Shown here piece by piece: positions 3,374 through 63,295 of a DNA stretch of 64,000 nucleotides. The notes below the pieces were generated by a model. That model had not been told where the DNA came from and made no database searches. It worked only from the letters and a program-made list of their open reading frames with translations. The stretch is from Candidatus Latescibacterota bacterium (GTDB taxonomy: Bacteria; Latescibacterota; UBA2968). The position numbers were made by a program, and so were the translations under genes. The first letter of the stretch is position 1. Every line of letters begins with the position of its first letter. The stretch covers positions 416,001-480,000 of the forward strand of contig OZ220741.1 of the NCBI GenBank assembly GCA_965116885.1. Direction: 5' to 3'.

Positions 3374-3385
3374 GCGAATTAAGTT

Positions 3386-3417
3386 AAAAGCAACCACAGA
3401 TGAACACAGATGAACAC
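3386..3417 (+). repeat. Decamer tandem repeat element (ACAGATGAAC)n; identical 32-nt copy at 6829-6860
   Basis: aaaagcaaccacagatgaacacagatgaacac occurs twice; variant (GCAGATGGAC)n on the minus strand at about 1224-1252. Confidence 0.8.
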
Positions 3418-3443
3418 AGAGTAAAAAACTAAAAGGAATACCC

Positions 3444-6813: not shown

Positions 6814-6995
6814 TGCAAACCTCCTTGAAAAAGCAACCACAGATGAACACAGATGAACACGGATAAAAGGCAACTGCATGCAGCTATCATAAAAGTTAAA
6901 AACCCCCATTCTGGCTGGACGCCTGCTTAAAGCATATAGGCGTGACAAGATTACTGACGTTGTACCTTGCTTCACATAGGTACCCATCCACCAGT

Positions 6996-8735: not shown

Positions 8736-8749
8736 TGGCAAACCTCCAC

Positions 8750-8789
8750 AAAAAAACTCGAGTGCCATACTTCGACACTCGAGTTTTTT
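8750..8789. terminator. Intrinsic terminator-like hairpin between DUF1501 and DUF1800 paralog 2
   Basis: aaaaaactcgagtg...cactcgagtttttt. Confidence 0.65.
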
Positions 8790-8863
8790 CTTGCAGCGGT
8801 GTAAACTGCACACGCGCAACACAACGTGTCAGTACAGCATCAAATGAGTGGTTAAAAATGACT

Positions 8864-10132: not shown

Positions 10133-10152
10133 AACGCTATCTCCTTTCCGAT

Positions 10153-11943: not shown

Positions 11944-11976
11944 AGCAACCCTCCTTGAAAATTCCCCAAAGGGAAT

Positions 11977-12069
11977 GGCATTGTGAATATTTAATATAAA
12001 ATATATCACAATGCCTAATGGTGCAATGCAATTATACAATTATATACAACACTATACAATTTTATACAA
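11977..12069. promoter_or_regulatory. Candidate operator region of the DUF1800/DUF1501 cluster
   Basis: Perfect inverted repeat GGCATTGTGA-N19-TCACAATGCC (11977-12015) and TATACAA x4 at exact 10-bp spacing (12033, 12043, 12053, 12063). Confidence 0.6.
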
Positions 12070-12079
12070 TTCTATTTTC

Positions 12080-13402
12080 TCAGAACAAATCTGCCGGAAC
12101 GGGCCTGACAACAATCGAGTCAACCCCAAAGCCTTCCAACTGCTGGGGATTCAGCGGGGCTTGCCTGTACTGCAGGACATAAGACGAGCCGCCCTGTGTC
12201 AGATTCACCGTCAAAATATCGCCCTCTTTGCTGAAATCCACATCGGACGCCGTCACCTGAGTCACGCTCGTGCCATCTTGTGAACCACCTCCCAATGTGC
12301 CCCTGATCACGGGTACGCCATTTTGAATCACATATCCCGTACGCCTGTTGAAAAACCGGTCTTCATCGGCATGTGTGGAAAACTCGATCGGCCTGGCAAA
12401 CGTGATTTCCACCAGACCGTGTTCTATGACCGGGCCATTCTCTATGAGGGGATCCTCCACACCAGCGGCTGGCACATGACCAGATGGCGCGCGGTGGCGA
12501 GGACTGCGCCGCTCCAGAATAGGTATCCAATTGATGTCCAGTGAAGCCGGAATACTCGGAAATGGGTCTTCGGGATCCATCCATGTACCATTGAGGTGAG
12601 AATCTTGCAAATACCATGTGCCGGAATACGGCATGTCATGGGTATCCAATTCTGCAACCACCTCTGCCGGGGGGGCATAAATGGAATAGCGTATGCCCTG
12701 ACCGTCCTCCACCCACATAACCATCTGATGAGGACGAGGGTCTTCATAGGGCCAGGGGCTATTAAAATAAACAGCCGTTCGGAGATTGCGGTTTTCAAAC
12801 GAGCGGTTATCTGGGCTTTGAGCATTTGGAATACTAATGCGAACGCGCCCATTACCCAGCACTGTCACGCGGCTATCCTCCTCGGCGCCGGGCAGCACGC
12901 GTACCAGAGTATTGGGCTGGTTCAATGCCTGAGTCGCACTCGGCGGTGCCGGGCTTGTATAATTGCCCAAACGATTGGACAATTCACCGAACATCGGCAA
13001 CCTGGGACCGATCAGCCAAATATAAAACGCACCGAGTGACAGTCTGTTACGCTCGTGATTATTGTGATTATATTCAATGCGAAGTTGATCGCGCGAGGCA
13101 TTTACTGAACGCATATAATGCCGCACGGTTTTTTCATACGTCACAGACGCCATCGGCGGTGCTGCAAGGGGAGGATTGTACACAAATACCACCGTGCCAT
13201 AATCCGATGCCGCCGCCGTAAAAATGATATGCCGGGGCGTGCCCTGAGGCGGGTCGGCAACATCTATGGCACTGCCCCCACTCGTCCCGGAAATCAGCCG
13301 ATAGCTGCCGCGCCACTCCTCGGCAGGCTCAGTCGGGATATCTCGGGTACATCCCGCTGTACCCACCATACCAATCAGACAAAGCAATAAAAATTTACGC
13401 AT
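12080..13402 (-). CDS. Hypothetical lipoprotein
   Basis: MRKFLLLCLIGMVGTAG-C lipobox-like signal; AGGAGG RBS; long ORF. Confidence 0.75.
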   Translation of the reverse strand: MRKFLLLCLIGMVGTAGCTRDIPTEPAEEWRGSYRLISGTSGGSAIDVADPPQGTPRHIIFTAAASDYGTVVFVYNPPLAAPPMASVTYEKTVRHYMRSVNASRDQLRIEYNHNNHERNRLSLGAFYIWLIGPRLPMFGELSNRLGNYTSPAPPSATQALNQPNTLVRVLPGAEEDSRVTVLGNGRVRISIPNAQSPDNRSFENRNLRTAVYFNSPWPYEDPRPHQMVMWVEDGQGIRYSIYAPPAEVVAELDTHDMPYSGTWYLQDSHLNGTWMDPEDPFPSIPASLDINWIPILERRSPRHRAPSGHVPAAGVEDPLIENGPVIEHGLVEITFARPIEFSTHADEDRFFNRRTGYVIQNGVPVIRGTLGGGSQDGTSVTQVTASDVDFSKEGDILTVNLTQGGSSYVLQYRQAPLNPQQLEGFGVDSIVVRPVPADLF

Positions 13403-13431: not shown

Positions 13432-13457
13432 GGGACGGCACAGGGGCCGTCCCCTAC
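13432..13457 (-). repeat. GTAG-type REP palindrome, family A (GTAGGGGACGGCCCCTGTGCCGTCCC)
   Basis: Further copies at 22055-22079, 29018-29043, 46406-46431, 49143-49168, 63221-63246. Confidence 0.85.
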
Positions 13458-13460
13458 GCC

Positions 13461-14468
13461 TTAGAACGTTCCCGAAAGTGTCAAACGCAGCGGGCGCTCT
13501 TTAATCACACCGCCGATATCGCTATACGAAACATCCACACTTATCTTGCGCTCTTCGCTCACATTGAGATTCAAACCCGCGCCCACGCTCCAACTCTCCA
13601 CATCGTACCTGAACTTATAACCGGCGCGGAGTGCCAGCAGATTTTGTATCCACAACTCGCCACCAATGTGATCGCGCTCTCCATAATCGCGGAAGAACAC
13701 ATGCTCATAAGCACCCGTCAAATAAAGCGGATCGCCCTGCTTGCCCAGCAATTCCATCGCGACGGCCAGATTGTAGAAAAATGGCAGGCGATAATCCTCG
13801 GTCAGCACTTCCTTATTGCCGCCCAGGTTGCTGATGGTCATGCCCACGCGCAGGCTCTTGAAACCCGTGTAAAAAATCGTGCCGATATCAAATGTCGTGG
13901 AACTCACATTGATGATATGAAGCTGGGACCGCACATAGCGCAGGCGAAAACCCATCGAAAACTTATCGGTCAACTGCTTGGCAAAAGACGCCGCAACCGA
14001 AAAATCCCCGAGTTTGATGTTGCGCCCCGTGCCATCGGGTTGCATGGGCGTGGTCTCTTCCACATCGGGATAGGTAAACGTGCGAAAAGAGACACCCACA
14101 ACGCCTATGGGAATGCGATAGGCAAAACCCCCAGCCCCCATCTTGGTGCCCACCAGCCACTCGTTATAAGATGCCAGATATGCCATATTGTCGATATGCA
14201 CCAATCCGGCTGCATTCTGGAATATTGCGTGAATGTCGCGCGACGTACCCACATTGGCATCGGCCATGCCTGCCAGGCGCGCAGATGCCGAAATCTTCAA
14301 AAGCGCGAAGCCACTGCGCGCGATGCGGTTGCCCTTATCGCCTTCCGAGCGAAAATGCCCTTCCGCAGCTATGGGTTCCAGATCATCAAAGCCTGCCACA
14401 TCCTGAGCCATGGCACTTTGAGGGCTGAGAAAAAGCGCGATAGCCGCTATCCAAATCAAGTATTTCAT
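13461..14468 (-). CDS. PorV/PorQ family outer-membrane beta-barrel
   Basis: FALLKISASARLAGMADA, AIFQNAAGL, LALRAGY, C-terminal F; signal peptide. Confidence 0.8.
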   Translation of the reverse strand: MKYLIWIAAIALFLSPQSAMAQDVAGFDDLEPIAAEGHFRSEGDKGNRIARSGFALLKISASARLAGMADANVGTSRDIHAIFQNAAGLVHIDNMAYLASYNEWLVGTKMGAGGFAYRIPIGVVGVSFRTFTYPDVEETTPMQPDGTGRNIKLGDFSVAASFAKQLTDKFSMGFRLRYVRSQLHIINVSSTTFDIGTIFYTGFKSLRVGMTISNLGGNKEVLTEDYRLPFFYNLAVAMELLGKQGDPLYLTGAYEHVFFRDYGERDHIGGELWIQNLLALRAGYKFRYDVESWSVGAGLNLNVSEERKISVDVSYSDIGGVIKERPLRLTLSGTF

Positions 14469-14495
14469 AATTTGCTCCTCAATAATGACCAATGA

Positions 14496-21689: not shown

Positions 21690-22054
21690 GCGTTTTCTAC
21701 AGCATGTACCAAGACAAATTATTCTTCCAAGAAAGCATTCAAGACCGGGTTGAAAATTGAGATTATCTTGCGTTGTTGCATGCAAAAAATAAGCTCAGCA
21801 GATACAGTTTTGCATATATCTCATTAAAAAACAATATTTTATGAAAAATATATATTCAAAAAACTTATTGAATAAAACGTTCAAAATAAGAACTTCTAAA
21901 TTGCTATATTAAAGCGTAAGCAAATAGAAATAAAAGAGTTAAAATAACCTTGTCAACGAAAAGTTTGTTAAAATTTGTAACAGGGCAATTATTCTGATTT
22001 TATAGGACTTACCGATCTTTAAAAAATGACAAGCAAAACCTTCTGGATCGCGCA

Positions 22055-22128
22055 GGACGGCACAGGGGCCGTCCCCTACAACACCTTGCCGCGATGACGG
22101 ACACGGGCGAGGCAGGCCTCGCCCCTAC
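22055..22128 (-). repeat. Two tandem GTAG REP palindromes (family A and GTAGGGGCGAGGCCTGCCTCGCCC)
   Basis: The second type recurs identically at 33599-33622. Confidence 0.8.
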
Positions 22129-28986: not shown

Positions 28987-29062
28987 ATGCGATCAAATGA
29001 TAAACTGGATTGAAAACGGGACGGCACGGGGGCCGTCCCCTACAACATCAGACCGCGCTGCA

Positions 29063-36019: not shown

Positions 36020-38878
36020 ATGCGTACATCGTGGATCATTTTTCTCTTACTATGGAGTACTTGCTCGGTCGTAGCTCAGGATCTCGGTAGCTTGGCTGGA
36101 AAAGTGGAAGATGAAACGGGAGAAGCATTATTCGCGGCCAATATCACAGTCAAAGGACCGGCTATTGAAGGCGTAAGAGGCGCAATCACCAACGACCAGG
36201 GGAACTATCGCATCGACCGCTTGCCACCGGGCATTTACGAAATCACCATCAGTTATATCGGATATGAAACCCTGGTGGCAACCGGCGTAGAAATCCGCGC
36301 TGGCGAAAGCATGACGCGAGATTTCAAACTGACCGCCGTAGCCCTCATCGGTCAACAAGTGGTCGTATCAGCATCGCGCAAACAGGAAAAAGCCCTGGAC
36401 GCACCCGCTTCAATAGCAACGATCGAAGCAGCCGAAATCAGAGATCGGGGGGTCTTGTCGCCAAGTGAGCATATCAAAGCCCTGCCCGGTGTTGACTTTT
36501 CCAAAACGGGCATCTCACAAAGCAACGTGGTGGTTCGCGGATTCAACAATGTATTTTCCGGTGCATTGCTCACACTTGTTGACAACCGCATTGCCCGCGT
36601 CCCTTCCCTGCGTTTCAATGCCTTTGATATGATCCCCGTTACCGGTGAAGACATTGAGCGCATTGAAGTGGTTTTGGGACCCGGATCCGCGCTTTACGGT
36701 CCCAACACCTCCAGTGGCGTGATGCACATTATCACCCGCTCCCCATTTGAATCAGAAGGCAATGCAATTTCCATATCTGGCGGCCAGCGCAGTGTGCGAA
36801 AATTATCACTGCGGCACGCCAGCAGCCTCAACGACAAAATTGGGATCAAAATTTCGGTTGGGCAAAGTTCAGCCCATGACTGGGAGTACATCGATCCCCT
36901 GGAAGTAGAAACGCGCGGTTTTAATCCACGCGATTACAACTCGAAAAAGACATTGGGAGAACTGAGACTCGATTTTCGACCAACAGATGACCTGACGATC
37001 ATAGGATCAACGGGTTATACAAAAACAAGCGGTATTGAATTGACGGGTTTGGGCGCGGGTCAGGCAAAAGACTGGACCTATAATTTTTATCAAGGTCGCC
37101 TGCTATATCGCGAGTGGTTCGCACAAATTTTCTACAACGCGAGTAATGCAGGTCAAACGAGAATGATCGCAGCCGACGACCCAATTGTGGATAATTCATA
37201 TTTGATGGTCATGCAATTGCAACACAATGCCAGCCTGGGAGAAAAACAACACTTTGCTTATGGTGCTGATGTACTGCTCACCCGACCCAAAACAGGGGGC
37301 ACCATAAATGGCATGCACGAAGACATTGATAACATCGATGAATACGGGATCTATTTGCAAAGTGAAACCAGCCTGAGCGATCAAATCGAGATGGTCTTGG
37401 CCGGACGCATCGACAAACACAGCCATATCGAAGACCCGTTTTTCTCACCCCGCGCGGCACTGGTCATCAAACCCAGACCGCTCAACACCCTGCGCTTGAC
37501 GTATAACCGCGCATTTAGCACGCCTTCGACCACCAACTTATTTTTAGACCGGATCGGCGTCCCCGACCCCTTTGGGTTCGGCGCATTGCAACCGTCATTG
37601 GGATTTAATCCAGCAATTGACGTTCGCGCACAGGGCACCGCCGGTACCGGGTTCACATTTCGCAGAGACGGCAATGGACTGCCCATGTATCGGACGCCCT
37701 TTGCGCCCATAGCGGGATTGTCAAAAGAACACTACTTCGCTCTGCACGATCCGCAAGGCACCAATTTGATGTGGGGCGCTGCCAGATCAATAATAATGGG
37801 TATCCTCCTGGCCGAATTGGAACCTCTCGCAACAGGGCTTTTCGTAGATCGGCTTGGACTACCACAAGATCAAGCGGCTGCGGTAGCCGCACAACTGGTT
37901 GCAGACTTCCCCGGGATTATCCCAGAACAACTGCCGGGTTTGCAAAATACGGCCGGGACACTGAATACGGCAACGGCGAGTTTTGATCCCGTGCCCAGCC
38001 TCGCCAATGCAGTGGCAGACATAAACAAAATCGAATCGACCATCTCAGAAACCTTTGAAGTGGGATACAAAGGCGTCATCAACAACAAACTCATTCTCGC
38101 AGCCGATGTCTATCTAAGCAGAAAAAGAAATTTCACCAGCCCGTTGCGGATTGTAACACCCAGTGTATTTCTCGCAGCCGGTCCCATGAGCGAAGCTCTG
38201 GAAAACGGAATTACCGAGAACTTGAAAGACCCGGCCAATGCAAGTCTCGCAATTGCCATCGGTCTTTTAGATCAACTCAACCTGCCGGATCTGGGCCTAA
38301 TTGGCAATGGCAATGGCACAGGCATAGATGAATTGACGCAGTTATTTGTATCCAACGCCGCGGGGATTCCCTTTGGCACCATGTCTGCCGAACAGGCATC
38401 GGACCCCACTGCGGTGATGGTCGCATATCGCAATTTTGGTCGCATAACGCTCTACGGTGCCGACCTATCTTTTGCGTATTATCCAAACGAAATATGGACT
38501 TTTACGGGCAATTACTCCTATGTCAGCGATGATTGGTTCCCCAATTTAGACAACATCGGCGACATAGCCCTCAATGCCCCCCGGCACAAATTTAACATCG
38601 GTATCGATTGCCAACTGCCCAATACACCGCTCACCATCCGCGGGAAATTGAGCTATCGCGATGGTTTTCCCATGCAATCGGGTGTATATGTCGGCGATGT
38701 AGATGCTTATACTGTTTTGGACCTGAGTACCTCATATCAGTTGCCTATTTCACATGATCGCTTCAAGATCACCTGGAATGTGGAAGCCAGCAACGTGTTA
38801 AACCAGGAATATCGATCATTTATCGGTGCGCCATTTATTGGACGCCTGGTCTTAACGGGCCTGAATATTCGATTCTAA
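36020..38878 (+). CDS. TonB-dependent receptor, paralog 1
   Basis: VVVSASRK, IERIEVVLGPGSALYG, C-terminal F. Confidence 0.92.
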   Translation: MRTSWIIFLLLWSTCSVVAQDLGSLAGKVEDETGEALFAANITVKGPAIEGVRGAITNDQGNYRIDRLPPGIYEITISYIGYETLVATGVEIRAGESMTRDFKLTAVALIGQQVVVSASRKQEKALDAPASIATIEAAEIRDRGVLSPSEHIKALPGVDFSKTGISQSNVVVRGFNNVFSGALLTLVDNRIARVPSLRFNAFDMIPVTGEDIERIEVVLGPGSALYGPNTSSGVMHIITRSPFESEGNAISISGGQRSVRKLSLRHASSLNDKIGIKISVGQSSAHDWEYIDPLEVETRGFNPRDYNSKKTLGELRLDFRPTDDLTIIGSTGYTKTSGIELTGLGAGQAKDWTYNFYQGRLLYREWFAQIFYNASNAGQTRMIAADDPIVDNSYLMVMQLQHNASLGEKQHFAYGADVLLTRPKTGGTINGMHEDIDNIDEYGIYLQSETSLSDQIEMVLAGRIDKHSHIEDPFFSPRAALVIKPRPLNTLRLTYNRAFSTPSTTNLFLDRIGVPDPFGFGALQPSLGFNPAIDVRAQGTAGTGFTFRRDGNGLPMYRTPFAPIAGLSKEHYFALHDPQGTNLMWGAARSIIMGILLAELEPLATGLFVDRLGLPQDQAAAVAAQLVADFPGIIPEQLPGLQNTAGTLNTATASFDPVPSLANAVADINKIESTISETFEVGYKGVINNKLILAADVYLSRKRNFTSPLRIVTPSVFLAAGPMSEALENGITENLKDPANASLAIAIGLLDQLNLPDLGLIGNGNGTGIDELTQLFVSNAAGIPFGTMSAEQASDPTAVMVAYRNFGRITLYGADLSFAYYPNEIWTFTGNYSYVSDDWFPNLDNIGDIALNAPRHKFNIGIDCQLPNTPLTIRGKLSYRDGFPMQSGVYVGDVDAYTVLDLSTSYQLPISHDRFKITWNVEASNVLNQEYRSFIGAPFIGRLVLTGLNIRF

Positions 38879-38922
38879 AAGCTTTCCCAAAAAATCCGAA
38901 TTATTGCGATAAGGAGGATTTG

Positions 38923-41784
38923 ATGCGCGTATTATATATCCTTGCTTTCGTACTGTGGAATGCTTACTCGGTCATAGCTCAGGATTTCGGCAGCTTGACT
39001 GGAAAAGTGAAAACAGAGGACGGAGTAATTTTATTCGGTGCCAATATCATAGTCAAAGGACCGGCCATTGAAGGCATCCGGGGCGCAATCACCAACGACC
39101 AGGGAAACTATCGCATAGACCGCTTGCCACCGGGCATTTACGAAATCACCATCAGTTATATCGGATATGAAACGGTGGTTGTATCGAATGTAGAAATCCG
39201 CGCTGGCGAAAGTATGACGCGAGATTTCAAACTGACCGCTGTAACCCTCATTGGTCAACAAGTCGTGGTATCGGCATCGCGCAAACAGGAAAAAGCCCTG
39301 GACGCGCCCGCCTCAATTGCAACAGTCGATGCATCTGAAATCAGAAATCGAGAAGTCTTGACAATGAGTGAATATGTCAAGACTCTGCCCGGCGTTGACT
39401 ATGCTCAAACAGGCATATCGCAAGGCAGCATGGTCGTTCGCGGATTCAACAAAGTATTTTCTGGCGCACTGCTCACACTCGTTGACAATCGCATTGCCCG
39501 CATCCCATCCCTGCGCCTCAATGCTTATGATTTGATCCCCCTTACCAGTGACGACATTGAGCGCATCGAAATCGTTCTGGGACCCGGATCCGCGCTTTAC
39601 GGTCCCAACAGTGCCAATGGCGTGATGCACATTATCACCCGATCCCCGTTTGGATCAGAAGGCAATACAATTTCTATATCTGGCGGCCAGCGCAGTGTGC
39701 GAAAATTATCGCTGCGGCACGCCAGCAGCCTCAACAACAAGATCGGGATCAAAATTTCAGGTGGATATGTTGCAACCCATGACTGGGAATATGTCGATTC
39801 CCTGGAAGTGGAAGCACGCGGATTTAATCCACGCGATTATAGCACAGAAAGGACAAGTGGGGAGTTCAGACTCGATTTTCGACCAACAGACGACCTGACG
39901 CTGATAGGGTCGGTGGGCTATTCAAAAATGAGCGGCCTTCAACAGACGGATTTGGGTGCGGGCCAGGCGAAAGACTGGATCTATAATTTTTATCAAGGCC
40001 GCCTGCTCTATCGCGGGTGGTTCGCACAAGTCTTCTACAACACCAGTAATGCGGGCGAAACGGAACTGATCACAGCCGGCGACCCAATTGTAGATAATTC
40101 ACATTTAATAGTCTTGCAACTGCAACACAATGCCAGTTTGGGAGAGAAACAACACTTTGCTTATGGTGCTGACGTGCTGCTCACCCGGCCCAAAACACAG
40201 GGCACAGTACACGGCATGCATGAAAACAATGACGATATCGATGAATACGGGATCTATCTACAAAGCGAAACCAACCTGAGCGATCAAATCAATCTGATAC
40301 TGGCCGGACGCATCGACAAACACAGCCATATCGAAGATCTGTTTTTTTCTCCTCGCGCGGCACTGGTCATCAAACCTACGCCGGAAAACACCCTGCGATT
40401 GACATATAACCGCGCATTTAGCACGCCCTCAACCCCCGACTTGTTTGTAGATCGAGTCGGCGTTCCCGACGTCTTTATGCTGGGGACAAATTTCAGTCCG
40501 GTATTGGGATTTAGTCCAGCAATTGACCTTCGCGCACAGGGCACCGCCGGTACCGGATTCACATTTCGCAGAGACGACAATGGGCTCCCCATGTTTCGGA
40601 CGGCTTTCGCGCCCATAGCGGGCTTGTCAAAAGATCACTACTTCTCTATGCACGACCCCCAGGCCACCAATTTGATGTGGCGCGCTGCCAGAGAGGCAAT
40701 ACTGGACGGCTTTCTATCTGAACTGGAACCTCTCGCAACGGAGCTTATCGCAGGCGGGCTTGGGCTACCACCAGATCAAGCGGTTGCGCTGGTCGAAAAA
40801 CTCGTCGAGATCTTTCCCGGAACTATCCCAGAACAACTGCCGGGCTTGCAAAATACGGCTGCGACACTGAATGCAGAAACGCAGGGTTTCGATCCCATAC
40901 CCGACCTCGCCAATGCAGTGACAGACATAGAAAAACTCGGCCCCACCATCACAGAAACCTTTGAATTGGGATACAAAGGCGTCATCAAAAACAAACTGAT
41001 CCTGGCAGCCGATGTCTATCAAACCAGAATCAAAAATTTCGTCAGCCCGTTGCGGATTGAAACGCCCAACGTATTTCTCGCACCCGGTCCCTTAAGCGAA
41101 GCCCTGACAGACGCGCTTACCGAGAACCTGAAAGACCCTGCCAATGCAAGCCTCGCAATTGCCCTTATTTTTTTAGACCAACTCAACGAGCCAGAGTTGG
41201 GTTTGGTTGGCAATGGCAATGGAACAGGCGTGGATGAATTGACGGCGTTATTCGTAGCCAACGCAGCGCTGATCCCATTTGGTACCATAGTGCCCGAACA
41301 GGCGGCAGACCCCAATGCAGTGATCGTCGCACCCCGCAACTTTGGCAACATAACGCTCTACGGTGCTGACCTATCATTTGCTTATTATCTAAACGAAATA
41401 TGGGCTTTTACCGGCAATTATTCCTACGTCAGCAAGGACTTGTTCCCCAATTTAGACAACATCGGCGACATTGCCCTCAATGCTCCCCGGCACAAATTTA
41501 ACATCGGAGTCGATTGCCAACTGCCCAATATACCGCTCACGATCCGAGGAAAATTGCGCTACCGTGACGGCTTTCCAATGCAATCGGGTATATATGTCGG
41601 CGATGTAGATGCCCATACGGTTCTGGACTTGAATCTCACCTATCAATTGCCACTTTCAAATGATCGCTTCACCACCACCTTGAGTTTGGATGCCAGCAAT
41701 TTGCTAAACCAGGGATATCAATCACTTGTCGGTGCGCCCTGGATCGGACGCCTGATTACAAGCAGCTTGCATGTTCGATTCTAA
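38923..41784 (+). CDS. TonB-dependent receptor, paralog 2
   Basis: Collinear near-copy of paralog 1; AGGAGG RBS. Confidence 0.92.
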   Translation: MRVLYILAFVLWNAYSVIAQDFGSLTGKVKTEDGVILFGANIIVKGPAIEGIRGAITNDQGNYRIDRLPPGIYEITISYIGYETVVVSNVEIRAGESMTRDFKLTAVTLIGQQVVVSASRKQEKALDAPASIATVDASEIRNREVLTMSEYVKTLPGVDYAQTGISQGSMVVRGFNKVFSGALLTLVDNRIARIPSLRLNAYDLIPLTSDDIERIEIVLGPGSALYGPNSANGVMHIITRSPFGSEGNTISISGGQRSVRKLSLRHASSLNNKIGIKISGGYVATHDWEYVDSLEVEARGFNPRDYSTERTSGEFRLDFRPTDDLTLIGSVGYSKMSGLQQTDLGAGQAKDWIYNFYQGRLLYRGWFAQVFYNTSNAGETELITAGDPIVDNSHLIVLQLQHNASLGEKQHFAYGADVLLTRPKTQGTVHGMHENNDDIDEYGIYLQSETNLSDQINLILAGRIDKHSHIEDLFFSPRAALVIKPTPENTLRLTYNRAFSTPSTPDLFVDRVGVPDVFMLGTNFSPVLGFSPAIDLRAQGTAGTGFTFRRDDNGLPMFRTAFAPIAGLSKDHYFSMHDPQATNLMWRAAREAILDGFLSELEPLATELIAGGLGLPPDQAVALVEKLVEIFPGTIPEQLPGLQNTAATLNAETQGFDPIPDLANAVTDIEKLGPTITETFELGYKGVIKNKLILAADVYQTRIKNFVSPLRIETPNVFLAPGPLSEALTDALTENLKDPANASLAIALIFLDQLNEPELGLVGNGNGTGVDELTALFVANAALIPFGTIVPEQAADPNAVIVAPRNFGNITLYGADLSFAYYLNEIWAFTGNYSYVSKDLFPNLDNIGDIALNAPRHKFNIGVDCQLPNIPLTIRGKLRYRDGFPMQSGIYVGDVDAHTVLDLNLTYQLPLSNDRFTTTLSLDASNLLNQGYQSLVGAPWIGRLITSSLHVRF

Positions 41785-43116: not shown

Positions 43117-44802
43117 TCAAGCAGACACAATGCGGATATCAACCTCAAATGTACTGACGGGATAATTTATACCCCAGATTTCGAGAACGCCGGGATGAAC
43201 TTCGCCAATAAGCCCGTAAACGCGCTCGCCTACGCAGATCTCGCCACTGCGACCGGGTAAAAATGTGGGATGCTCAATCGGCGCAATAGTATATTCAAAG
43301 TCAAAATAATAAGATAATACCTCCAGATAGCTCTGAATACCAGACAAATTGGCCTCGTCACTCGCTTCGAGCGCGCAAAGATGAATATCTGTGCGCGTAC
43401 CGTAATCTTCTCCCGACGCGAGAACCCCCACCTCACCCACTTCAAAAATCCGATGCGGGTACAACGCGCGGCGGCTTGTCGCTTCGGTCTTCAACAAACC
43501 GGGCAGCAGTGCCCCCCGAATCGCGCTGTAATTTTCGGACATGGGATTTGAAATCGAGACAATCTTTGCATCTGGATTATTCATATCCACGGTCTGTTCT
43601 TTTTTAGAACAGAGAATCGGCAAAAAGACCTCTTGAAATCCGCTCCCAACCATGAGATTGCGAAATCGGTCTGCAAGATCCTCTTCTGGTGCGGCTTTGC
43701 CAATCGTAAAATCCCGGGGCATCTCGGGTTCAAAAGCCTCGTACCCCACACCGATCACAACATCTTCCACCACATCGACGGGATGCAAAATATCGTCGCG
43801 ATAAGGTGCTGGACGCACTTTAATAATCCGGTCTCGTACATCAACATCCCGATAACCCATCGCGTTGAGCGCGGTCTGAATCTGCCCTATCGAAATATGT
43901 GACCCAACCACTTTGTAAATCTCATCTATATCGACTTGCAATGGCTCGGTCATATCATACGGACACGTCACAACCTGTCCCCTCGGCGTGTGAAATGGAT
44001 ACCGCACCGTCACGGGATAAATGCGACCGCCCCGGTCAGCCATATTGACCGCCATAATCGCCATAGACAAAAGAATAGCGTCGAGTTCAGGACCCGTTGC
44101 TTCGCAAAACAAAAACGTATCCCCCACTTCAACGCGCCCCAGGCTCTGACTATTAATAACAGGAGGCATCGAAAGAACCTCGCCGCGCGAATCGCGGATC
44201 AGGGGAAACTTATCCTTCCCCTCGAGAAGATGTGCATACATCCTGCCCGTGGGATGATCGGACAAAATCTGTCGCAAAGACATCTCATCTTCAAACTCCA
44301 GAGGAACAAAAGCCGTCACATCGGGATCAACCGCATCGTATCGCACCGGATACACAATATCGGACGCATCGTAAATCCCAATCGCAACAACGCTGCGCCC
44401 GCGCCCATATCCATCGGCGAGTTTTTCCTGCGCCTCGATAAGCGCATCCAGTGCCGCATCATCAATCGCAATACCCTCACACGCAAAAGCGGCAATATAG
44501 GGACGGATATTTCGCAAGCCGGGATCGACAATAACCTCCCGTTCCTGCGATACGCCAGACGCATCAAAAAAAGAATAATCCGGCTTCACATTCTCCCGAT
44601 GGCTTTTGAGCAATCGCGCAAGCCCCTCTCCCGACCACAAATCGGGGCGGTTGGTATCCTTGAGTTGAATGCGAAGCGTATCGCCCTCTTCCGCATCGAT
44701 CTCAGCCTTCGCCGTTTCAAGCGCAACACTCAAACTCTCCGAAGAATAAACCTGCCCTGCGAGACGTTCAAAATCGGGTTTATTAACTGTAATCGTTGGC
44801 AT
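43117..44802 (-). CDS. pheT: Phenylalanine--tRNA ligase beta subunit, short archaeal/eukaryotic genre
   Basis: 561 aa, MPTITV, TNRPDLWS, LSMPPVINS, YRDDILHPVDVVED. Confidence 0.92.
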   Translation of the reverse strand: MPTITVNKPDFERLAGQVYSSESLSVALETAKAEIDAEEGDTLRIQLKDTNRPDLWSGEGLARLLKSHRENVKPDYSFFDASGVSQEREVIVDPGLRNIRPYIAAFACEGIAIDDAALDALIEAQEKLADGYGRGRSVVAIGIYDASDIVYPVRYDAVDPDVTAFVPLEFEDEMSLRQILSDHPTGRMYAHLLEGKDKFPLIRDSRGEVLSMPPVINSQSLGRVEVGDTFLFCEATGPELDAILLSMAIMAVNMADRGGRIYPVTVRYPFHTPRGQVVTCPYDMTEPLQVDIDEIYKVVGSHISIGQIQTALNAMGYRDVDVRDRIIKVRPAPYRDDILHPVDVVEDVVIGVGYEAFEPEMPRDFTIGKAAPEEDLADRFRNLMVGSGFQEVFLPILCSKKEQTVDMNNPDAKIVSISNPMSENYSAIRGALLPGLLKTEATSRRALYPHRIFEVGEVGVLASGEDYGTRTDIHLCALEASDEANLSGIQSYLEVLSYYFDFEYTIAPIEHPTFLPGRSGEICVGERVYGLIGEVHPGVLEIWGINYPVSTFEVDIRIVSA

Positions 44803-44822: not shown

Positions 44823-46364
44823 CTACCGCGTATTCCTGACCAGATCCAAATCCGTACTGAACAAATCGCGAATATCGTTAATACCCAGCGCGACCATCGC
44901 CATTCTATCAACCCCCAGACCCCAGGCAATAACTGGCACATCCACACCCAGAGGTCGTGTAAGTTCAGGCCGAAAAAGACCCGCGCCACCAAGTTCGATC
45001 CATCCCAGAACGGGATGCTTCGCCTGAAGTTCGACCGAAGGCTCGGTAAAAGGAAAATAATCGGGCACATAGCGCACATCTTCGGCCTGCGCGATCTCAA
45101 GGGCGAACAGCTTGAGCAAACCGAGCAAACTGCGAAAATTTATCTCCTCGCCCAAAACAATACCCTCAGCCTGAAAAAAATCTGCCGCGTGCGTGGCATC
45201 GACATCATCCGGACGAAAACAACGCGCAAGAGCGAAATACTTACCCGGGATATTCGGTTCTGAAGCGAGCGCACGCGCCGAAAGCGCAGTGCCCTGACTC
45301 CGCAAAATAAGGCGGCGCGACTGTTCGGGATTAAATTCATATCGCCACCCGCGCGACCCCGTATCGCCCCCATTTTGATGCGCCTCAGCCACCCGGGAAA
45401 AATGGGGTTCCTCTGCCTCTCGGGATTGCGTTGGCTCCGTAACATAATACGCATCGTGAATATTGCGCGCCGCGTGAAACTGCGGCATAAAAAGGGCATC
45501 CATATTCCAGAACTCGGTCTCCACCAGAGAACCTTTCAACTCTTCAAAACCAAGCGCCATCAACCGGCGCCGCACATTATCGAGATACGCCCGATAGGGA
45601 TGGTGCTTCCCAATAAGCACGCGCGGCGGCTTAATCGACAAATCATATCGGCGAAAAGATGCGCCCTGCCATGTACCTTTCTGAATCATTTCCGGCGTAA
45701 GCCGAGAAACTTCATCACCCGTAAGATTGGCTTTGACAACCTCCACAAGCACGCGCCGCCCTTCTTCCGTAAGACAATAAACCCGCTCTGTGCGCTCGTC
45801 CAAACGAACAGGCGCCCTGCCCCCGCCGCGCTTGCGGGCATTGGCTTCAATATATTGGACAACATCACCGGGAAAATTATCAATCTCAATTCCCGTATCG
45901 GAAAATTTGTCAAACAATTCTGGCATAAGTCGATCAATAAAAAAAGAAGCCCGATCTGCATCGACAATAACAACAGCCCCCTTATCCAGATCGATAATCC
46001 CATCCTTTTTCAAACCGCCAAAAGCACTGCCCCAGGCACCTCTGTCAAAACGCTCGTCGGCTTGCAAATCTTGAATCCCAACGCGCTCTGCACTCGCCCG
46101 GGTCAAAAGTGCCGTCTCTGGCGTCGCGCCCTTTGTTGCAAAATCCCGTCCCACTTCCGTAAGCGAAACTGTTGCGCGCGTATTTTCCCCGGTAACTTCG
46201 AGCAACTGCTTGGAAATCAGCCACTCAACCGCGCGTCTAACCTGTCCTTCGCCAATGCCTGCCCCCTTTTGAAGTTGTGCATCGGACTGCTCGGCACTGG
46301 CATTATTCTCATATACACGCAAAATGCGAATTTCGAGCGCATGTAAAGAAGCGAGATCCATCAA
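44823..46364 (-). CDS. pheS: Phenylalanine--tRNA ligase alpha subunit, long archaeal/eukaryotic genre
   Basis: 513 aa, FWNMDALFMPQFHAAR, YFPFTEPS, WGLGVDR; start TTG 46364 or ATG 46361. Confidence 0.93.
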   Translation of the reverse strand: MMDLASLHALEIRILRVYENNASAEQSDAQLQKGAGIGEGQVRRAVEWLISKQLLEVTGENTRATVSLTEVGRDFATKGATPETALLTRASAERVGIQDLQADERFDRGAWGSAFGGLKKDGIIDLDKGAVVIVDADRASFFIDRLMPELFDKFSDTGIEIDNFPGDVVQYIEANARKRGGGRAPVRLDERTERVYCLTEEGRRVLVEVVKANLTGDEVSRLTPEMIQKGTWQGASFRRYDLSIKPPRVLIGKHHPYRAYLDNVRRRLMALGFEELKGSLVETEFWNMDALFMPQFHAARNIHDAYYVTEPTQSREAEEPHFSRVAEAHQNGGDTGSRGWRYEFNPEQSRRLILRSQGTALSARALASEPNIPGKYFALARCFRPDDVDATHAADFFQAEGIVLGEEINFRSLLGLLKLFALEIAQAEDVRYVPDYFPFTEPSVELQAKHPVLGWIELGGAGLFRPELTRPLGVDVPVIAWGLGVDRMAMVALGINDIRDLFSTDLDLVRNTR

Positions 46365-46405: not shown

Positions 46406-46522
46406 GGGACGGCACAGGGGCCGTCCCCTACGGGCGGGCACGAGGCACCGCCCCTACGGTGATATTGTGATTTTTTGTAGGGACAACCCCCTGTGGTTGT
46501 CCTTCGCCCCCTGTGGTCGCCC
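46406..46522. repeat. Cluster of REP palindromes in the pheS 5' UTR
   Basis: Copies at 46406-46431 and 46432-46457 (minus), 46477-46502 (plus), plus a partial copy. Confidence 0.8.
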
Positions 46523-46855: not shown

Positions 46856-49108
46856 CTATCCGCCAACCGATTTTCCAAAGGCACTCACAAACAGAAGAAA
46901 ATCGGGAAAGTCAACAGTACCGTTCCTATCGATATCATATTGGGCCTCGGACGATCCAAATGCCCCTACAAACAGGAGAAAATCAGCAAACTCGATTACG
47001 CCATTGCCGTCAAAATCCGATTTGGCTTCCACAGAAAGCGGCTGGACAACGCCAGAAATCGTCAGCATAAACCTTGCGCGATCCGGATCATTACTCAAAA
47101 TATTGATACTACCCGAAAACTCGCCCTCCATGGGTTTGGGAAACGTAATCGTAATCGTCGCCGAACTATCCGGAGATAGTGTAAACATAGAAGGCTCAAA
47201 CGTCAAACCCGACACATCGCTCTCAATACCCGTAATCTCCAGAGGCGCAGTACCCGTATTCGTAATCGTAAAAGTCTGCTGAGCTGTCTTCTCAGCATCA
47301 ATACTCCCAAAATCAATCGCCGGTTCACCCACAACAAGCACAGGCGCAGGTGCCGCCTGCACAATCACAGAAACGGATAAAGTCCGCGTCGCACGATCAG
47401 GATCATTACTCGAAATCGTGATATTACCCGAAAATGTGCCTTCCACAGAACTCGGAAATGTCACCGTCACCGTGCGCGAACCGCCAGGTTCCAATGTGAA
47501 CATCGTAGTATCAAACGTCAAACCCGACACATCGCTCTCAATACCCGTTATCTCCAGCGGTGCTGTCCCCGTGTTCTCAATCGCAATCGTCTGTTGACCT
47601 GTTTGACCTGCCTCAATAGCACCGAAATTAACAGCCGTTTGCTGAACCGCAATCACCGGCACAGGTGCCGCCTGCACAATCACAGAAATAGATAATATCT
47701 GCGTTGCACGATCCGGATCATTACTCGAAATCGTGATATTCCCTGAAAATGTGCCTTCCACAGAACTCGGAAACGTAATTGTCACCGTCTGTGAACCATT
47801 GGGTGCCAGGGTGAACATCGTAGTATCAAACGTCAAACCCGACACATCGCTCTCAATACCCGTAATCTCCAGCGGTGCAGTACCCGTGTTCATAATCGCA
47901 ATCGTCCGTTGACCTGTTTGGCCTGCCTCAATAGTGCCAAAATCAACTGCCGTTTGCTGAACCGCAATCACCGGCGCAGGTGGCGGCTGGACAATCACAG
48001 ACACGGATAAAGTCCGCGTTGCGCGATCAGGATCATTACTCGAAATCGTGATATTACCCGAAAACGTGCCCTCCACAGAACTCGGAAACGTCACCGTCAC
48101 CGTCTGTGAACCATTGGGAGCCAGTGTAAATGTAGAAGGCGTAAACGTCAAACCCGACACATTACTCTGAATACCCGTAATCTCCAGCGGTGCAGTACCT
48201 GTATTCCTGATCGTAATCGTCTGTTGACCTGTCTGCCCTGCCTCAATAGTACCGAAATTAACTGCCGTTTGCTGCACAGCAATCGCTGGTGCAGGGGGCG
48301 GTTGAACAATCACAGAAACGGATAATGTCTGTGTTGCACGATCCGGATCATTACTCGAAATCGTGATATTACCCGAAAACGTGCCCTCCACAGAACTCGG
48401 AAATGTCACCGTCACCGTCTGAGAACCGTTGGGCGCCAGTGTGAACATTGTAGTATCAAACGTCAAACCCGACACATCGCCCTCACCCTTAATCCCCGTT
48501 ATCTCCAAATCCGCTGTACCCGTGTTTGTAATCGTAATCGTTTGTTCACCTGTTTGACCGGCGTCAATAGTCCCGAAATCAATAGCTGTTTGCTGCACAG
48601 AGATCGCTGGCACAGGCGCGGGTATTTGTGCCAACAACTCATCAACCACCTTTGCCGCGTTACTACGTGCAGTGGAATTCGTCAAACTGCTTGATGCAAA
48701 AAAGCGCACAATTCCATCGGGACCAACGACAATGAGATCCTCAAGGCCGAATGGGCTACCTGCGTTTCGGAGCACAGGAAAAGTGACACTTGCGGCAGTG
48801 CGAAAACTATTAACTTGACCCGGATTACCATTCCAAACATCGAGACCCAACATGGCAAAATTATCGGAATCTTTATACTTACCCCAAATTTCGCTTTCGA
48901 GAGACGGACCCGCCTCTCTACAGCGCGTTCAACTCCACCCAATGACCGCAAGCACGAGTACTTTGCCTTCATAGTCAGAGGCCTTATGTGTAGTGCCGCT
49001 GGGATCTGGGAAAGAAAAATTAACAATCGGTTGCCCAACCGTTTGTGCAGAAGCAGCCCCAACGAGCAAAAGTAGAATCATCGGGATGGACAATAGATAT
49101 TTACGCAT
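46856..49108 (-). CDS. Exported selenoprotein: thioredoxin-fold (AhpC/TSA-like, UxxC) domain + 5 Ig-like repeats + EF-hand/dockerin-like tail; 750 aa with Sec60
   Basis: In-frame TGA at 48929-48931 in GKVLVLAVIGWS-U-TRC joins two track ORFs; SECIS-like hairpin follows. Confidence 0.85.
47050..48615 (-). repeat. Five intragenic 315-bp (105-aa) tandem repeats
   Basis: acaatcacag recurs at 47361, 47676, 47991, 48306; repeating motif DFG...ITNTGTAPLEITGI...ISSNDPD; boundaries approximate. Confidence 0.9.
48892..48925 (-). promoter_or_regulatory. Bacterial SECIS element candidate
   Basis: GAGAGGCG-GGTC-CGTCTCTC upper stem, CGCT/AGCG lower stem; loop starts 18 nt after the UGA. Confidence 0.8.
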
Positions 49109-49263
49109 GGCATTTATCCTTATATATTGGTGAAAGAAAGACGGGACGGCACGGGGGCCGTCCCCTACAACAACATGCTGCAATGACGGCTCTCCTGTCC
49201 TAAAGGTATCAACGCTTCAATCTAACAGAAGTTTCTCCACGGGTCAACCACAAGGAGCGAGCG

Positions 49264-50241: not shown

Positions 50242-51471
50242 ATGAGCAAACGCGATGCAGAGCAAGTTCAAAAAGTATTGTCTGGCGACCAGGCTGCTTA
50301 CGAACCGCTGGTTGAGGCGTATCAAGGGCGCATCTTTGCCTTTGTAGCTGGTCGAATCCGCAACTTTTCCGCAACAGAAGACATCGTACAAAATGCGTTT
50401 GTGGAGGCATACATGCACCTCAAGTCTCTAAAATCGCCCGAAAAATTCTCAGGTTGGCTGCGGGGAATTGCACTCAATCTATCGAACAAATGGATTCAAC
50501 AAAAGCGCCCCGCCGTCTCAATAGACGAAACATCACAAGATGTGACACCTGAAATATCAGAATTTCCACTGCCGGACTTACCCGACGAAGCACTGGAAAA
50601 AACCGAAACAGAAGAAGTCGTTATAGCCGTCGTTGATGCATTACCAGACATTTATCGGGAATCAGTACTGCTCCACTACATGGAAGGCATGACCTATCCC
50701 GAAATCGCAGCCTTTCTCGACATCCCCGAAAGCACAGTAACCGGACGCCTTCAGGTCGCGCGCAATCGCTTGCGCGACGAATTGATGCCGCTGGTAGAAG
50801 ACACGCTCCGCGAAAAACGTCCAACACCTCAACTGACGCGCAAAATAATGGCCGCATTACCCCCGCTATTGTACGCAGTACCAACACAGGCGAGTCTGCT
50901 CGCAAAACTGAAAGGAACGGGCATGATTAAAATAACGGGTATCATCGGCGCAGGAATCGCGGGAACGGGATTGTATTTTGGTGGGATTTCGGCAGTATGG
51001 AATTTAGGACAAGAAAACACTGAGCCATCCCAGGTGCCCCAAATACAGCTCGAATTGGAAAACCTCGCTCAAAATGAGCAATCCGTTCCTGAGAAAACTA
51101 ACGAAACAGAGGGCGTAGAATCTTCGCCACAAGAAGTCCAATCCGATTCCAATACAAGTGGCGAAACACAAACAGAAAAACTGGACTTCAAAATGGAAAC
51201 TTCGCCACAAGATTCACTGGTAAAAATAGTGTACTGGATACCAGAGACGGTCTATTCAGACTCCGTCTTTATAGAACTCGAATGCTACAATAATATGGGC
51301 ATGATAGTAGCCAGACCGATCAATAAAACACACGCACCGGGTTCTTATACGACGTTCTTATCTAAACAAGGACTTCCCGACGGAATATACTTCGTGCAAT
51401 TAGAAGCAAATCAATCCAAAAAAAATGCCCAGATACGGAAATTAAATCTAATTTGGACAGACAGAAAGTGA
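50242..51471 (+). CDS. ECF sigma factor with a long C-terminal extension (TM segment + Ig/FlgD-like domain)
   Basis: GDQAAYEPLV, EDIVQNAF, FSGWL, YPEIAAFL...TVTGRL; then IIGAGIAGTGLYFGG and LPDGIYFVQLEA. Confidence 0.85.
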   Translation: MSKRDAEQVQKVLSGDQAAYEPLVEAYQGRIFAFVAGRIRNFSATEDIVQNAFVEAYMHLKSLKSPEKFSGWLRGIALNLSNKWIQQKRPAVSIDETSQDVTPEISEFPLPDLPDEALEKTETEEVVIAVVDALPDIYRESVLLHYMEGMTYPEIAAFLDIPESTVTGRLQVARNRLRDELMPLVEDTLREKRPTPQLTRKIMAALPPLLYAVPTQASLLAKLKGTGMIKITGIIGAGIAGTGLYFGGISAVWNLGQENTEPSQVPQIQLELENLAQNEQSVPEKTNETEGVESSPQEVQSDSNTSGETQTEKLDFKMETSPQDSLVKIVYWIPETVYSDSVFIELECYNNMGMIVARPINKTHAPGSYTTFLSKQGLPDGIYFVQLEANQSKKNAQIRKLNLIWTDRK

Positions 51472-51478
51472 GGTCAGC

Positions 51479-52762
51479 ATGTATTTCAACAAGTGCAAAC
51501 TGGTAGCAAGTCTGGCAATATGTCTAATTGCATATTCTCTGTGTTTTGCACAACAGCCAACCCATTCCAAAGAAGAAATGAAGCGATTTCGCCAATTTGC
51601 GTCCGGATACCTCCCCAAGACCCCAGATCAGTATTGGGAGGGCATTCTGGGACTGGAGCAACTGCTTGCGGATTATCCCAATACCTTTTTGAAAGGCGAC
51701 ATCTCCATCACCCTGTTGGGTTATTACCAACACGTCACCGATGATCCACACCTGTTGATTGAACTCTCTGAAAAAATGCTCGCATTGCGAAGGCACACCA
51801 ATGGTGCTTATGAAACGGCTGCTCGGGCACTCGTAGATAAGAAAGTTCGGTCTGATAAAACGCTTCTATATGCACAAAACGCATTAAAAGAAGCATTGCA
51901 GAACCAGGAAAAATGGGAAAATTACGGTAAAAGAGAATTAATCTGCCGGGATCTATTGGCGCGTGCTCATCAACTCCTTGGACAACACGACCGTGCTGTC
52001 CAAGAAATAAAAACCGCGCTACGCGGTTGGCAAACCCGAGAAGATTTAGGCGACCTGGAACTGGCATCTCGGCAGGCGTCAGTAGATAGGGCAAAGACCC
52101 ACTTGCTTCGAATCTATATCGACCAAAAAGCATGGACAGAGGCTTATGAACTCGCCTCAGAACTATTGCTAACCTCAGTCATACGCCAGGATATAGCAGA
52201 ACTGTGGAGCCAAGCTTATGCTGGCAAACACGGCTCAGGTGCGGGGATGAGCAAAGCATACGCTGCCTTAAAATCCGAGCGGAAGGAAAAAATCATCCAA
52301 AGCGTCGAAAAAGAACGCATTTTACGCTCTGCACCGGCCTTTGAAGTCCAGAAGTTAGACGGTGAAAAAATCACGTCAGCAGACTTAAAAGGCAAAGCTG
52401 TGGTACTAACATTTTGGGCGGGATGGTGCAGCCCGTGCATTGAAGAACTGCCCTATCTCCAAAACCTCAACGCGCAATTTCTCAAGCAAAATGTCGAATT
52501 TTTAGCTGTAAATATCGACCAGGACAGCTCAATGCGCCGGGATATGGTCGCCAGCTTTCGGTACCAGAGCGCACCGCTCTTAACCTTTGCATTGGGCGAT
52601 CTGGAAATGCGAAAAGCGTTTGGCTCCGACGAGATTCCCTATACCTGCATCATCGACCAGAACGGACAAATTCGGTATGAGCGCAAGGGATTAGGTGCAG
52701 ATTTCAGCGTGGCAATGGCGCATCAATTGCAATGGGTCATCGGAATGAACGAGGCACCGTAA
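51479..52762 (+). CDS. Exported TlpA-like thiol-disulfide oxidoreductase with an N-terminal helical/TPR-like region
   Basis: LKGKAVVLTFWAGWCSPCIEELP, IPYTCIIDQNG. Confidence 0.85.
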   Translation: MYFNKCKLVASLAICLIAYSLCFAQQPTHSKEEMKRFRQFASGYLPKTPDQYWEGILGLEQLLADYPNTFLKGDISITLLGYYQHVTDDPHLLIELSEKMLALRRHTNGAYETAARALVDKKVRSDKTLLYAQNALKEALQNQEKWENYGKRELICRDLLARAHQLLGQHDRAVQEIKTALRGWQTREDLGDLELASRQASVDRAKTHLLRIYIDQKAWTEAYELASELLLTSVIRQDIAELWSQAYAGKHGSGAGMSKAYAALKSERKEKIIQSVEKERILRSAPAFEVQKLDGEKITSADLKGKAVVLTFWAGWCSPCIEELPYLQNLNAQFLKQNVEFLAVNIDQDSSMRRDMVASFRYQSAPLLTFALGDLEMRKAFGSDEIPYTCIIDQNGQIRYERKGLGADFSVAMAHQLQWVIGMNEAP

Positions 52763-63220: not shown

Positions 63221-63295
63221 GGGACGGCACAGGGGCCGTCCCCTACAATGATTGGTTAATCCGGTTTTTGTAGGGGCGACCCCCTGTGGTCGCCC
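63221..63295. repeat. Inverted pair of GTAG REPs (REPIN-like) between convergent genes
   Basis: Family A REP on minus (63221-63246) and GTAGGGGCGACCCCCTGTGGTCGCCC on plus (63270-63295). Confidence 0.78.

Follow-up and report, generated by a model that had tools for sequence, protein, structure and literature searches.

The question raised by this locus is whether an in-frame TGA codon ends a short exported peptide or is decoded as selenocysteine (Sec) inside a much larger secreted protein. The gene lies at positions 46856..49108 (minus strand) of a 64-kb stretch of DNA from an uncultured Latescibacterota bacterium. This stretch is called the window here, all coordinates are window positions, and the relatives were read as loci of about 20 kb. 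The second answer is favoured with a probability of roughly 0.85, namely that this is a single gene for an exported selenoprotein in which UGA codon 60 specifies Sec, with a redoxin head, a stalk of five immunoglobulin-like (Ig-like) repeats and a dockerin-like tail. A first-pass annotation of the same DNA had proposed an exported 750-residue selenoprotein with Sec at a CxxC site and a selenocysteine insertion sequence (SECIS) just downstream, a proposal now supported by TGA in seven of seven orthologous loci and Cys at the same position in 144 of 145 remote homologues. The gene is composed of the following parts:

46856..49108, minus strand: whole gene, 750 codons and a TAG stop, with one in-frame TGA.
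49117..49121, minus strand: ribosome-binding site AAGGA, 8 nt ahead of the ATG, in a block kept in eight of eight loci.
49046..49108, minus strand: signal peptide, residues 1-21, read by eye, with a basic start, a hydrophobic core and A-S-A before Q22.
48629..49039, minus strand: redoxin (AhpC/TSA, TlpA/ResA-like thioredoxin-fold) catalytic domain, residues ~24-160, from Pfam, AlphaFold and Foldseek.
48929..48931, minus strand: TGA, the proposed codon for selenocysteine U60, first position of U-x-x-C.
48920..48922, minus strand: Cys63, the putative resolving partner and the protein's only Cys.
48899..48918, minus strand: SECIS-like hairpin with an 8-bp stem and the apical loop GGUC at 48907-48910, from conservation, covariation and spacing.
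47042..48619, minus strand: five tandem Ig-like repeats (choice-of-anchor D / DUF1573 / HYDIN-VesB type) of ~105 residues each, from profiles and a 315-nt period.
46859..47023, minus strand: dockerin-like C-terminal module with two calcium-loop and helix repeats, from an orthologue profile against 2Y3N_B and from EF-hand_1.

In the list of open reading frames (ORFs), the gene appears as two entries, 48929..49183 and 46856..48853 (both on the minus strand), which share a frame. They are separated by the TGA at 48929-48931 and a further 75 nt, equal to 25 sense codons, exactly as the first-pass annotation had described. Translation from the ATG at 49108 with TGA read as U gives 750 residues, placing U60 within a GWS-U-TR-C motif. 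This ATG is the likely start, since it is preceded by AAGGA and by a block of about 25 nt that is nearly invariant in eight of eight loci. The leader that follows had also been recognised previously; it reads as a typical signal peptide and is nearly identical in eight of eight loci, with a pN of 0.05 and a ratio of nonsynonymous to synonymous change (pN/pS) of 0.17.

Comparison with relatives provides the first line of evidence on the TGA. When representative genomes were scanned once with the head domain as query, nine loci (L001 to L009) were recovered, seven of which belong to Latescibacterota metagenome-assembled genomes (six other genomes, with five of the loci on complete chromosomes). 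In all seven, TGA is present at the aligned codon, the frame is open on both sides and indels are all in threes; together with the window, eight of eight sequences carry the TGA within an open frame of 424-1686 codons. The head of the window protein is only 50-64% identical to those of the seven loci, which indicates that the TGA has persisted through considerable divergence. L003 and L007 are paralogues on one chromosome, and each carries the TGA. The L003 copy (10001..13357 of its locus) is non-syntenic and has the same leader, TGA and hairpin, followed by a different C-terminal body of 1118 residues with six Cys which ends at a second TGA. In the remaining two loci, L008 and L009 (Bacteroidota, Ignavibacteria), the site is occupied by W-C-x-P-C.

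More distant relatives were obtained by an exhaustive profile-free search, which returned 1006 proteins at an expectation value (E) <= 0.001. Among the best 150 of these, 145 span the site; Cys occupies the U position in 144 and the position three residues later in 144, while 143 have both, the exceptions lacking one Cys of the pair being P0098 and P0134. The other five are fragments, four of which begin at the Met that follows the break and one of which, a 59-residue piece (P0061), stops just before it. In an alignment of 70 sequences, F31, the U/C site and C63 are the only invariant columns, and in seven of the eight proteins of 424-1686 residues, no Sec or Cys occurs beyond one of each. The first-pass annotation had located the TGA at the first Cys of a thioredoxin-fold CxxC site and had suggested an alignment of TGA with Cys in homologues as a check; that alignment has now been made and agrees with the placement.

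The domain that surrounds the TGA is a redoxin head. Searched alone, it matches PF00578 with 35.0 bits against a cut-off of 26, with PF08534 under its own cut-off (18.6 against 26.6). An AlphaFold model from the 70-sequence alignment reached a predicted local distance difference test (pLDDT) score of 92.9, and in this model residue 60 lies between a strand (50-56) and a helix (61-78), the classic active-site position of the thioredoxin fold. The top match is 2LS5 both by sequence profile (E 1.9e-27, with ResA/TlpA at E 1e-14 to 1e-16) and in Foldseek (E 4.3e-12, template modelling (TM) score 0.76, root-mean-square deviation 2.0), where ResA comes next and Bcp/PrxQ/AhpE peroxiredoxins and glutathione peroxidases rank lower. 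An AhpC/TSA-like head had been proposed initially, and the PF00578 match bears this out; by profile and fold, however, the domain resembles TlpA/ResA-type thiol-disulfide oxidoreductases more closely than peroxiredoxins proper. Its subfamily has the motif F-G-[YN]-x-C-P-x-C, with Pro after the first Cys in 101 of the 145 homologues, and the Sec forms read U-T-R-C in the window and U-P-x-C in six of the seven loci. The variant C-P-H-C is also the motif of DsbA. By analogy with these proteins, the head would most likely act outside the cytoplasm as a selenol/thiol-disulfide oxidoreductase.

It has also to be considered that the protein might be a genuine selenoprotein whose head is a peroxidase or a selenium- or metal-binding module rather than a disulfide oxidoreductase. 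This alternative draws on the AhpC/TSA identity of the Pfam match, on the peroxiredoxins and glutathione peroxidase found lower in the fold search and on the lack of an evident extracytoplasmic reductant. It is nonetheless rather unlikely, considering that ResA-type oxidoreductases and a putative disulfide isomerase come out on top in both sequence and fold comparisons, that C-P-x-C predominates among the homologues, and that the motif is U-x-x-C and not the T-x-x-C given for peroxiredoxins in Table 1 of a 2026 review (PMC13188914).

The second line of evidence for Sec is the hairpin downstream of the UGA. It begins 10 nt past the UGA, its GGUC loop begins 18 nt past it, in agreement with the first description, and it is present in the minimum-free-energy fold of the window. 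Across the eight sequences, 81.3% of the cells in the hairpin columns are paired, as opposed to 22-45% for slid partners, with compensatory changes in two pairs and a column identity of 88%; the paired percentage was equalled by 5 of 500 shuffles. The search for SECIS covariation, likewise put forward in the first pass, has in this way yielded these two compensatory pairs. Synonymous divergence amounts to 0.154 in the 11 codons after the UGA versus 0.28-0.43 in the rest of the domain, the pattern that selection on the shape of the RNA would be expected to produce. By analogy with known selenoprotein genes, the hairpin is a putative recognition site for SelB.

These observations bear on the possibility that near-cognate or suppressor decoding inserts a standard residue (Cys, Trp or Gly) at the UGA. 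Sec insertion at this site is a prediction from sequence, and Cys is what nearly all homologues use there, both of which suit such a reading. The GGUC loop stands at SelB spacing, however, the synonymous-site conservation over the hairpin would be left without explanation, and TGA serves as a stop elsewhere in the window, which makes decoding as a standard residue very unlikely. TGA is in fact the ordinary stop of 8 of 23 well-supported window genes, including aspS and pheT, which points to local recoding and not to a changed genetic code; genome-wide reassignment of TGA was considered and rejected on this ground.

The use of TGA as a normal stop in the window also favours a further alternative, in which this TGA is a true stop and the locus encodes, as annotated, a 59-residue exported peptide and a separate 665-residue protein starting from the ATG at 48853. 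Gene callers have split all eight of the long relatives, and the 59-residue fragment P0061 exists as a database entry. Against this, the break would fall inside one thioredoxin fold, modelled with high confidence as a single domain; protein-level conservation extends over the 25 codons that separate the TGA from the ATG; the downstream piece has no signal peptide though it is built of secreted-type domains; and the homologues run continuously through the site with Cys. A true stop is accordingly regarded as highly improbable. The concern raised in the first pass, that standard annotation would split the gene and lose the catalytic site, proved justified, as eight of the eight long relatives in the protein database begin at the Met after the break.

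The rate at which the head changes was compared with that of its neighbours. The gene order PhyH-like gene, target, T-box, pheS and pheT is kept in six loci, and the flanking proteins are 81-98% identical between genomes while the target heads are 50-64% identical. For the flanks and rates, the set consisted of the window with L001, L002 and L004-L007, leaving out the non-syntenic L003. The pN/pS is 0.63 for the head, 0.12 for pheS and 0.14 for PhyH, with similar synonymous divergence, which indicates that the head changes about five times faster than its flanks while keeping U-x-x-C. Either diversifying selection or loose constraint on all but the active site may account for this. The high ratio would also suit a decaying gene, in which a nonsense mutation has struck a fast-evolving surface protein, but this is scarcely credible, given that the same TGA occurs in eight of eight sequences differing at 36-50% of residues, that both paralogues of one genome keep it, that there is no other stop or frameshift across 424-1686 codons, and that the active-site Cys, signal peptide and hairpin are conserved.

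The five-repeat Ig-like stalk described in the first pass was recovered by both Pfam and NCBIfam. The choice-of-anchor D model NF012200 scores 305.7 bits against a cut-off of 45 over five stretches, PF22544 and PF07610 also match five stretches, and the stalk DNA has a 315-nt period in 4.8 copies. Between genomes, the stalk varies from 2 to 11 Ig-like repeats, with counts of the S-N-D-P motif, present once per repeat, of 5, 11, 5, 0, 4, 2, 2 and 10 in the eight proteins (the zero being L003). The model NF041425 for the OS_HP2/DUF1573 selenoprotein also scores above its cut-off through the five repeats (138.6 bits against 100). The stalk was nonetheless rejected as a selenoprotein of that kind, as its repeats contain neither Cys nor Sec and hence lack the UGC motif; only the fold is shared.

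The tail consists of two D-x-D-x-N-G...D-F-L-L-F segments. A profile of seven orthologues matches the cellulosomal dockerin 2Y3N_B with E 9e-9 through both repeats (positions 12-66), whereas calmodulins match one loop only, and EF-hand_1 scores 31.7 bits. The EF-hand/dockerin-like module of the first pass is hence retained as a sequence feature, and the tail may be described as dockerin-like at this level. Among 14 window proteins of unassigned family scanned with Pfam, no cohesin was detected; the genomes were not searched. Neither a cohesin partner nor a route across the outer membrane was found for the target, and a PorV/PorQ-family protein is encoded in the window, yet a type IX sorting domain is missing from the target.

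Several results weigh against the reading of this gene as an exported selenoprotein of this layout. No tRNA gene was found in the window or in L001-L007, and selA, selB, selC and selD were not seen in the window and loci, the whole genomes not having been scanned. A strict scan of the window and the nine loci for a TGA with a hairpin revealed no second selenoprotein candidate, returning besides the target two weak 5-bp cases that lacked a redox context; a scan for in-frame TGA with redox-like context elsewhere yielded antisense or noise frames only. The hairpin taken alone is within chance (z = -1.66, with 13 of 200 shuffles folding as well) and is the minimum-free-energy fold in just three of the eight sequences. 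Within the stem, six of eight sequences have a C-A mismatch at one pair, and a second pair is disrupted in L004 and L005. Over the eight sequences, RNAalifold gives a different, weak consensus of -5.11 kcal/mol with no compensatory pairs, and a competing hairpin (columns 6-12 with 19-25) is 89.3% paired and buries the GGUC. No SECIS or other relevant family was found in Rfam, either over the whole window at gathering score or in 500 nt around the site at E <= 10. The ResA/TlpA models NF002854 and NF047696 score 24.4 and 24.5 bits against cut-offs of 170 and 230, the dockerin models stay under theirs on the tail (Dockerin_1 18.1 against 22.9; NF041540 23.9 against 29), and the tail model is poor (pLDDT 65.6; best Foldseek E 0.37). 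The head pN/pS, lastly, would also fit relaxed constraint.

The hairpin is considered to stand above chance because it is conserved across eight sequences, and not because of its fold in any single one. It is preferred over the RNAalifold consensus because of its geometry and covariation; the competing hairpin has no covariation and its loop would begin just 9 nt after the UGA. Since the NCBIfam scores are so far under their cut-offs, the head is regarded as a relative and not an orthologue of ResA/TlpA.

On the reading of the gene as a single exported selenoprotein, a sequence of events can be proposed. From what is known of SelB decoding, SelB and Sec-tRNA would bind the GGUC hairpin as the ribosome reaches UGA codon 60. 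The protein would then be exported through the Sec pathway and its leader cleaved. Sec60 would be the exposed nucleophile, at the N-terminal end of the first long helix, attacking a disulfide of a substrate or an oxidant, and Sec60-x-x-Cys63 would be the sole redox pair, with Cys63 resolving the intermediate as a selenenylsulfide. Stalk and tail would keep the head at a distance from the binding target of the tail, with the stalk setting the reach, so that the head may be displayed at the surface on a spacer arm and the tail may serve as the anchor. More speculatively, the tail might dock, with calcium, onto a cohesin-like partner.

A wider hypothesis can be offered tentatively, although its full form is doubtful: an extracellular selenoenzyme with a Sec-Cys head, a variable stalk of 2-11 repeats and a dockerin-like tail held in a surface scaffold, whose head changes some fivefold faster through variable external partners such as substrate proteins, the host or phages. 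If this is true, dockerin-borne selenoproteins would have their first example here and Latescibacterota their first sign of Sec decoding. At present, the locus corrects a systematic annotation error, by which eight of eight long database relatives have been left without signal peptide and catalytic site. It also provides a naturally occurring example of Sec in a secreted protein that is large and modular; should the machinery be confirmed, a candidate phylum would be added to those that use selenocysteine. That U-x-x-C is invariant in a head that otherwise changes fast offers a lead on the targets of extracellular redox proteins of this subfamily.

The region upstream of the gene contains two further elements:

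49219..49247, minus strand: promoter-like site TTGACC, 17 nt, TAGATT, with TG, a consensus match only.
49143..49165, 46406..46428, 13432..13454, 22054..22076, 29018..29040 and 63221..63243, minus strand: copies of a 23-nt hairpin element.

The block that holds the promoter-like site is conserved in the window, L002, L006 and L007, and partially in L001. The 23-nt element is GC-rich, with an 8-bp stem and a 6-nt loop, and occurs six times in the window with at most two mismatches, all on the minus strand, where the chance expectation is 0. One copy, with a T-rich run, lies in the 5' leader of the target between the promoter-like site and the ATG; this copy is absent in L002 and L007. The element could be a shared terminator or resemble a repetitive extragenic palindromic (REP) sequence.

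The neighbourhood has features of its own. Directly downstream of the target there is a T-box leader (RF00230, 46553..46805, minus strand, 106.5 bits against 93), which stands upstream of an archaeal-type pheS (44823..46364) and pheT (43117..44802; pheT_arch, 484 bits), giving a Latescibacterota genome in which the operon for an archaeal-type Phe-tRNA ligase carries a T-box. On the other side (50242..52762, plus strand), the first gene encodes an extracytoplasmic function (ECF) sigma factor of 409 residues, whose long C-terminal extension bears a weak resemblance to a type IX sorting domain. The next gene encodes a 427-residue protein with a tetratricopeptide repeat-like region and a ResA-like domain carrying W-C-S-P-C. 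L001, L002, L005 and L007 have this pair beside the target, L004 has part of it, and it was not found in L006 or in the non-syntenic L003. Further away, three DUF1800 proteins (~440-450 bits each) and one DUF1501 protein are encoded in a row (5011..12039, minus strand), adjoining the PorV/PorQ-family gene (13461..14492) and two arylsulfatase-like genes (2054..4943). Positions 36020..41784 (plus strand) encode a tandem pair of TonB-dependent receptors, each about 950 residues long, with a mutual identity of about 75% as judged by locus cross-matches.

The literature search returned nothing joining Latescibacterota with a selenoprotein. Among the papers on Latescibacteria and selenocysteine, judged by their listing and by passages, none treats such a protein, and in one of them the phylum appears just as a genome bin; judged by titles and the opening of abstracts, the same holds for a protein of this kind in work on dockerin and selenocysteine. 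Latescibacteria combined with dockerin gave unrelated matches only. Cellulosome-like modules have reportedly been described in Latescibacteria in an in-silico study, which was not located in this search.

Among known selenoproteins, Table 1 of the review introduced above (PMC13188914) lists Prx-like (peroxiredoxin-like) thiol:disulfide oxidoreductases (PF00578, UxxC/UxxU) and Redoxin family proteins (PF08534, UxxC), together with a Thiol-disulfide isomerase-like protein, a UGC-type TlpA family and a DUF1573 selenoprotein. The UxxC redoxins of this table resemble the window protein in their AhpC/TSA-Redoxin fold, in having Sec first in U-x-x-C and in having been predicted through UGA/Cys alignment and a downstream hairpin. 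They differ, as far as their listing goes, in being entered as single families, whereas here the domain is the head of a secreted Ig-like/dockerin-like protein of 750 (up to 1686) residues. A term search of this review and of the BSepDB paper found no mention of Latescibacteria, signal peptides or secretion. The E. coli fdhF SECIS (K-12 record) likewise has a GGUC apical loop that starts 18 nt after the UGA; its stem sequence is unrelated, and the lower stem here carries the C-A mismatch in most of the sequences. With a hairpin geometry so similar to that of E. coli, heterologous expression is a realistic test.

Among Cys proteins, ResA/TlpA/DsbE (PDB 1SU9, 1ST9, 3C71; 1JFU) share the fold, the active-site position and export, with Foldseek E values of about 1e-10 to 1e-9 and TM scores of 0.65-0.69. 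They have W-C-x-x-C where the present family has G-[WY]-x-U-x-x-C, with Sec for Cys and no membrane anchor, and no cytochrome c maturation genes are present in the neighbourhood of the target. The best match by both profile and structure, 2LS5, is a putative protein disulfide isomerase of Bacteroides thetaiotaomicron, differing as a 159-residue Cys protein with 23% identity and a putative function. Etrx1 and Etrx2 of Streptococcus pneumoniae (PDB 4HQZ, 2YP6) also place a TlpA-like fold outside the cytoplasm (Foldseek E of about 2e-8), where they act with methionine sulfoxide reductase; they are, however, lipid-anchored Cys lipoproteins of a Gram-positive bacterium.

The closest parallels in layout are the Cys homologues, P0015 and P0016 among them, which have a signal peptide, a redoxin of the same subfamily, optional Ig-like spacers and a C-terminal anchoring module. 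Among 20 that were scanned with Pfam, 13 (including P0015 and P0016) combine a signal peptide and a redoxin with a type IX secretion sorting domain, four have tandem redoxins and three a dockerin-like tail. P0017 and P0059 consist of a redoxin with Cys, two Ig-like domains (as opposed to five to eleven) and an EF-hand/dockerin-like tail. Because these two share the layout, the architecture counts as familiar in its Cys version, to which the window adds the Sec form; the first-pass view that it had not been described can be maintained for the Sec form and not for the layout itself. What is already known, then, comprises redoxin-fold selenoproteins with UxxC (PMC13188914) and Cys versions of the same architecture, while the phylum, the Sec form of that architecture and the very fast evolution of its head are new.

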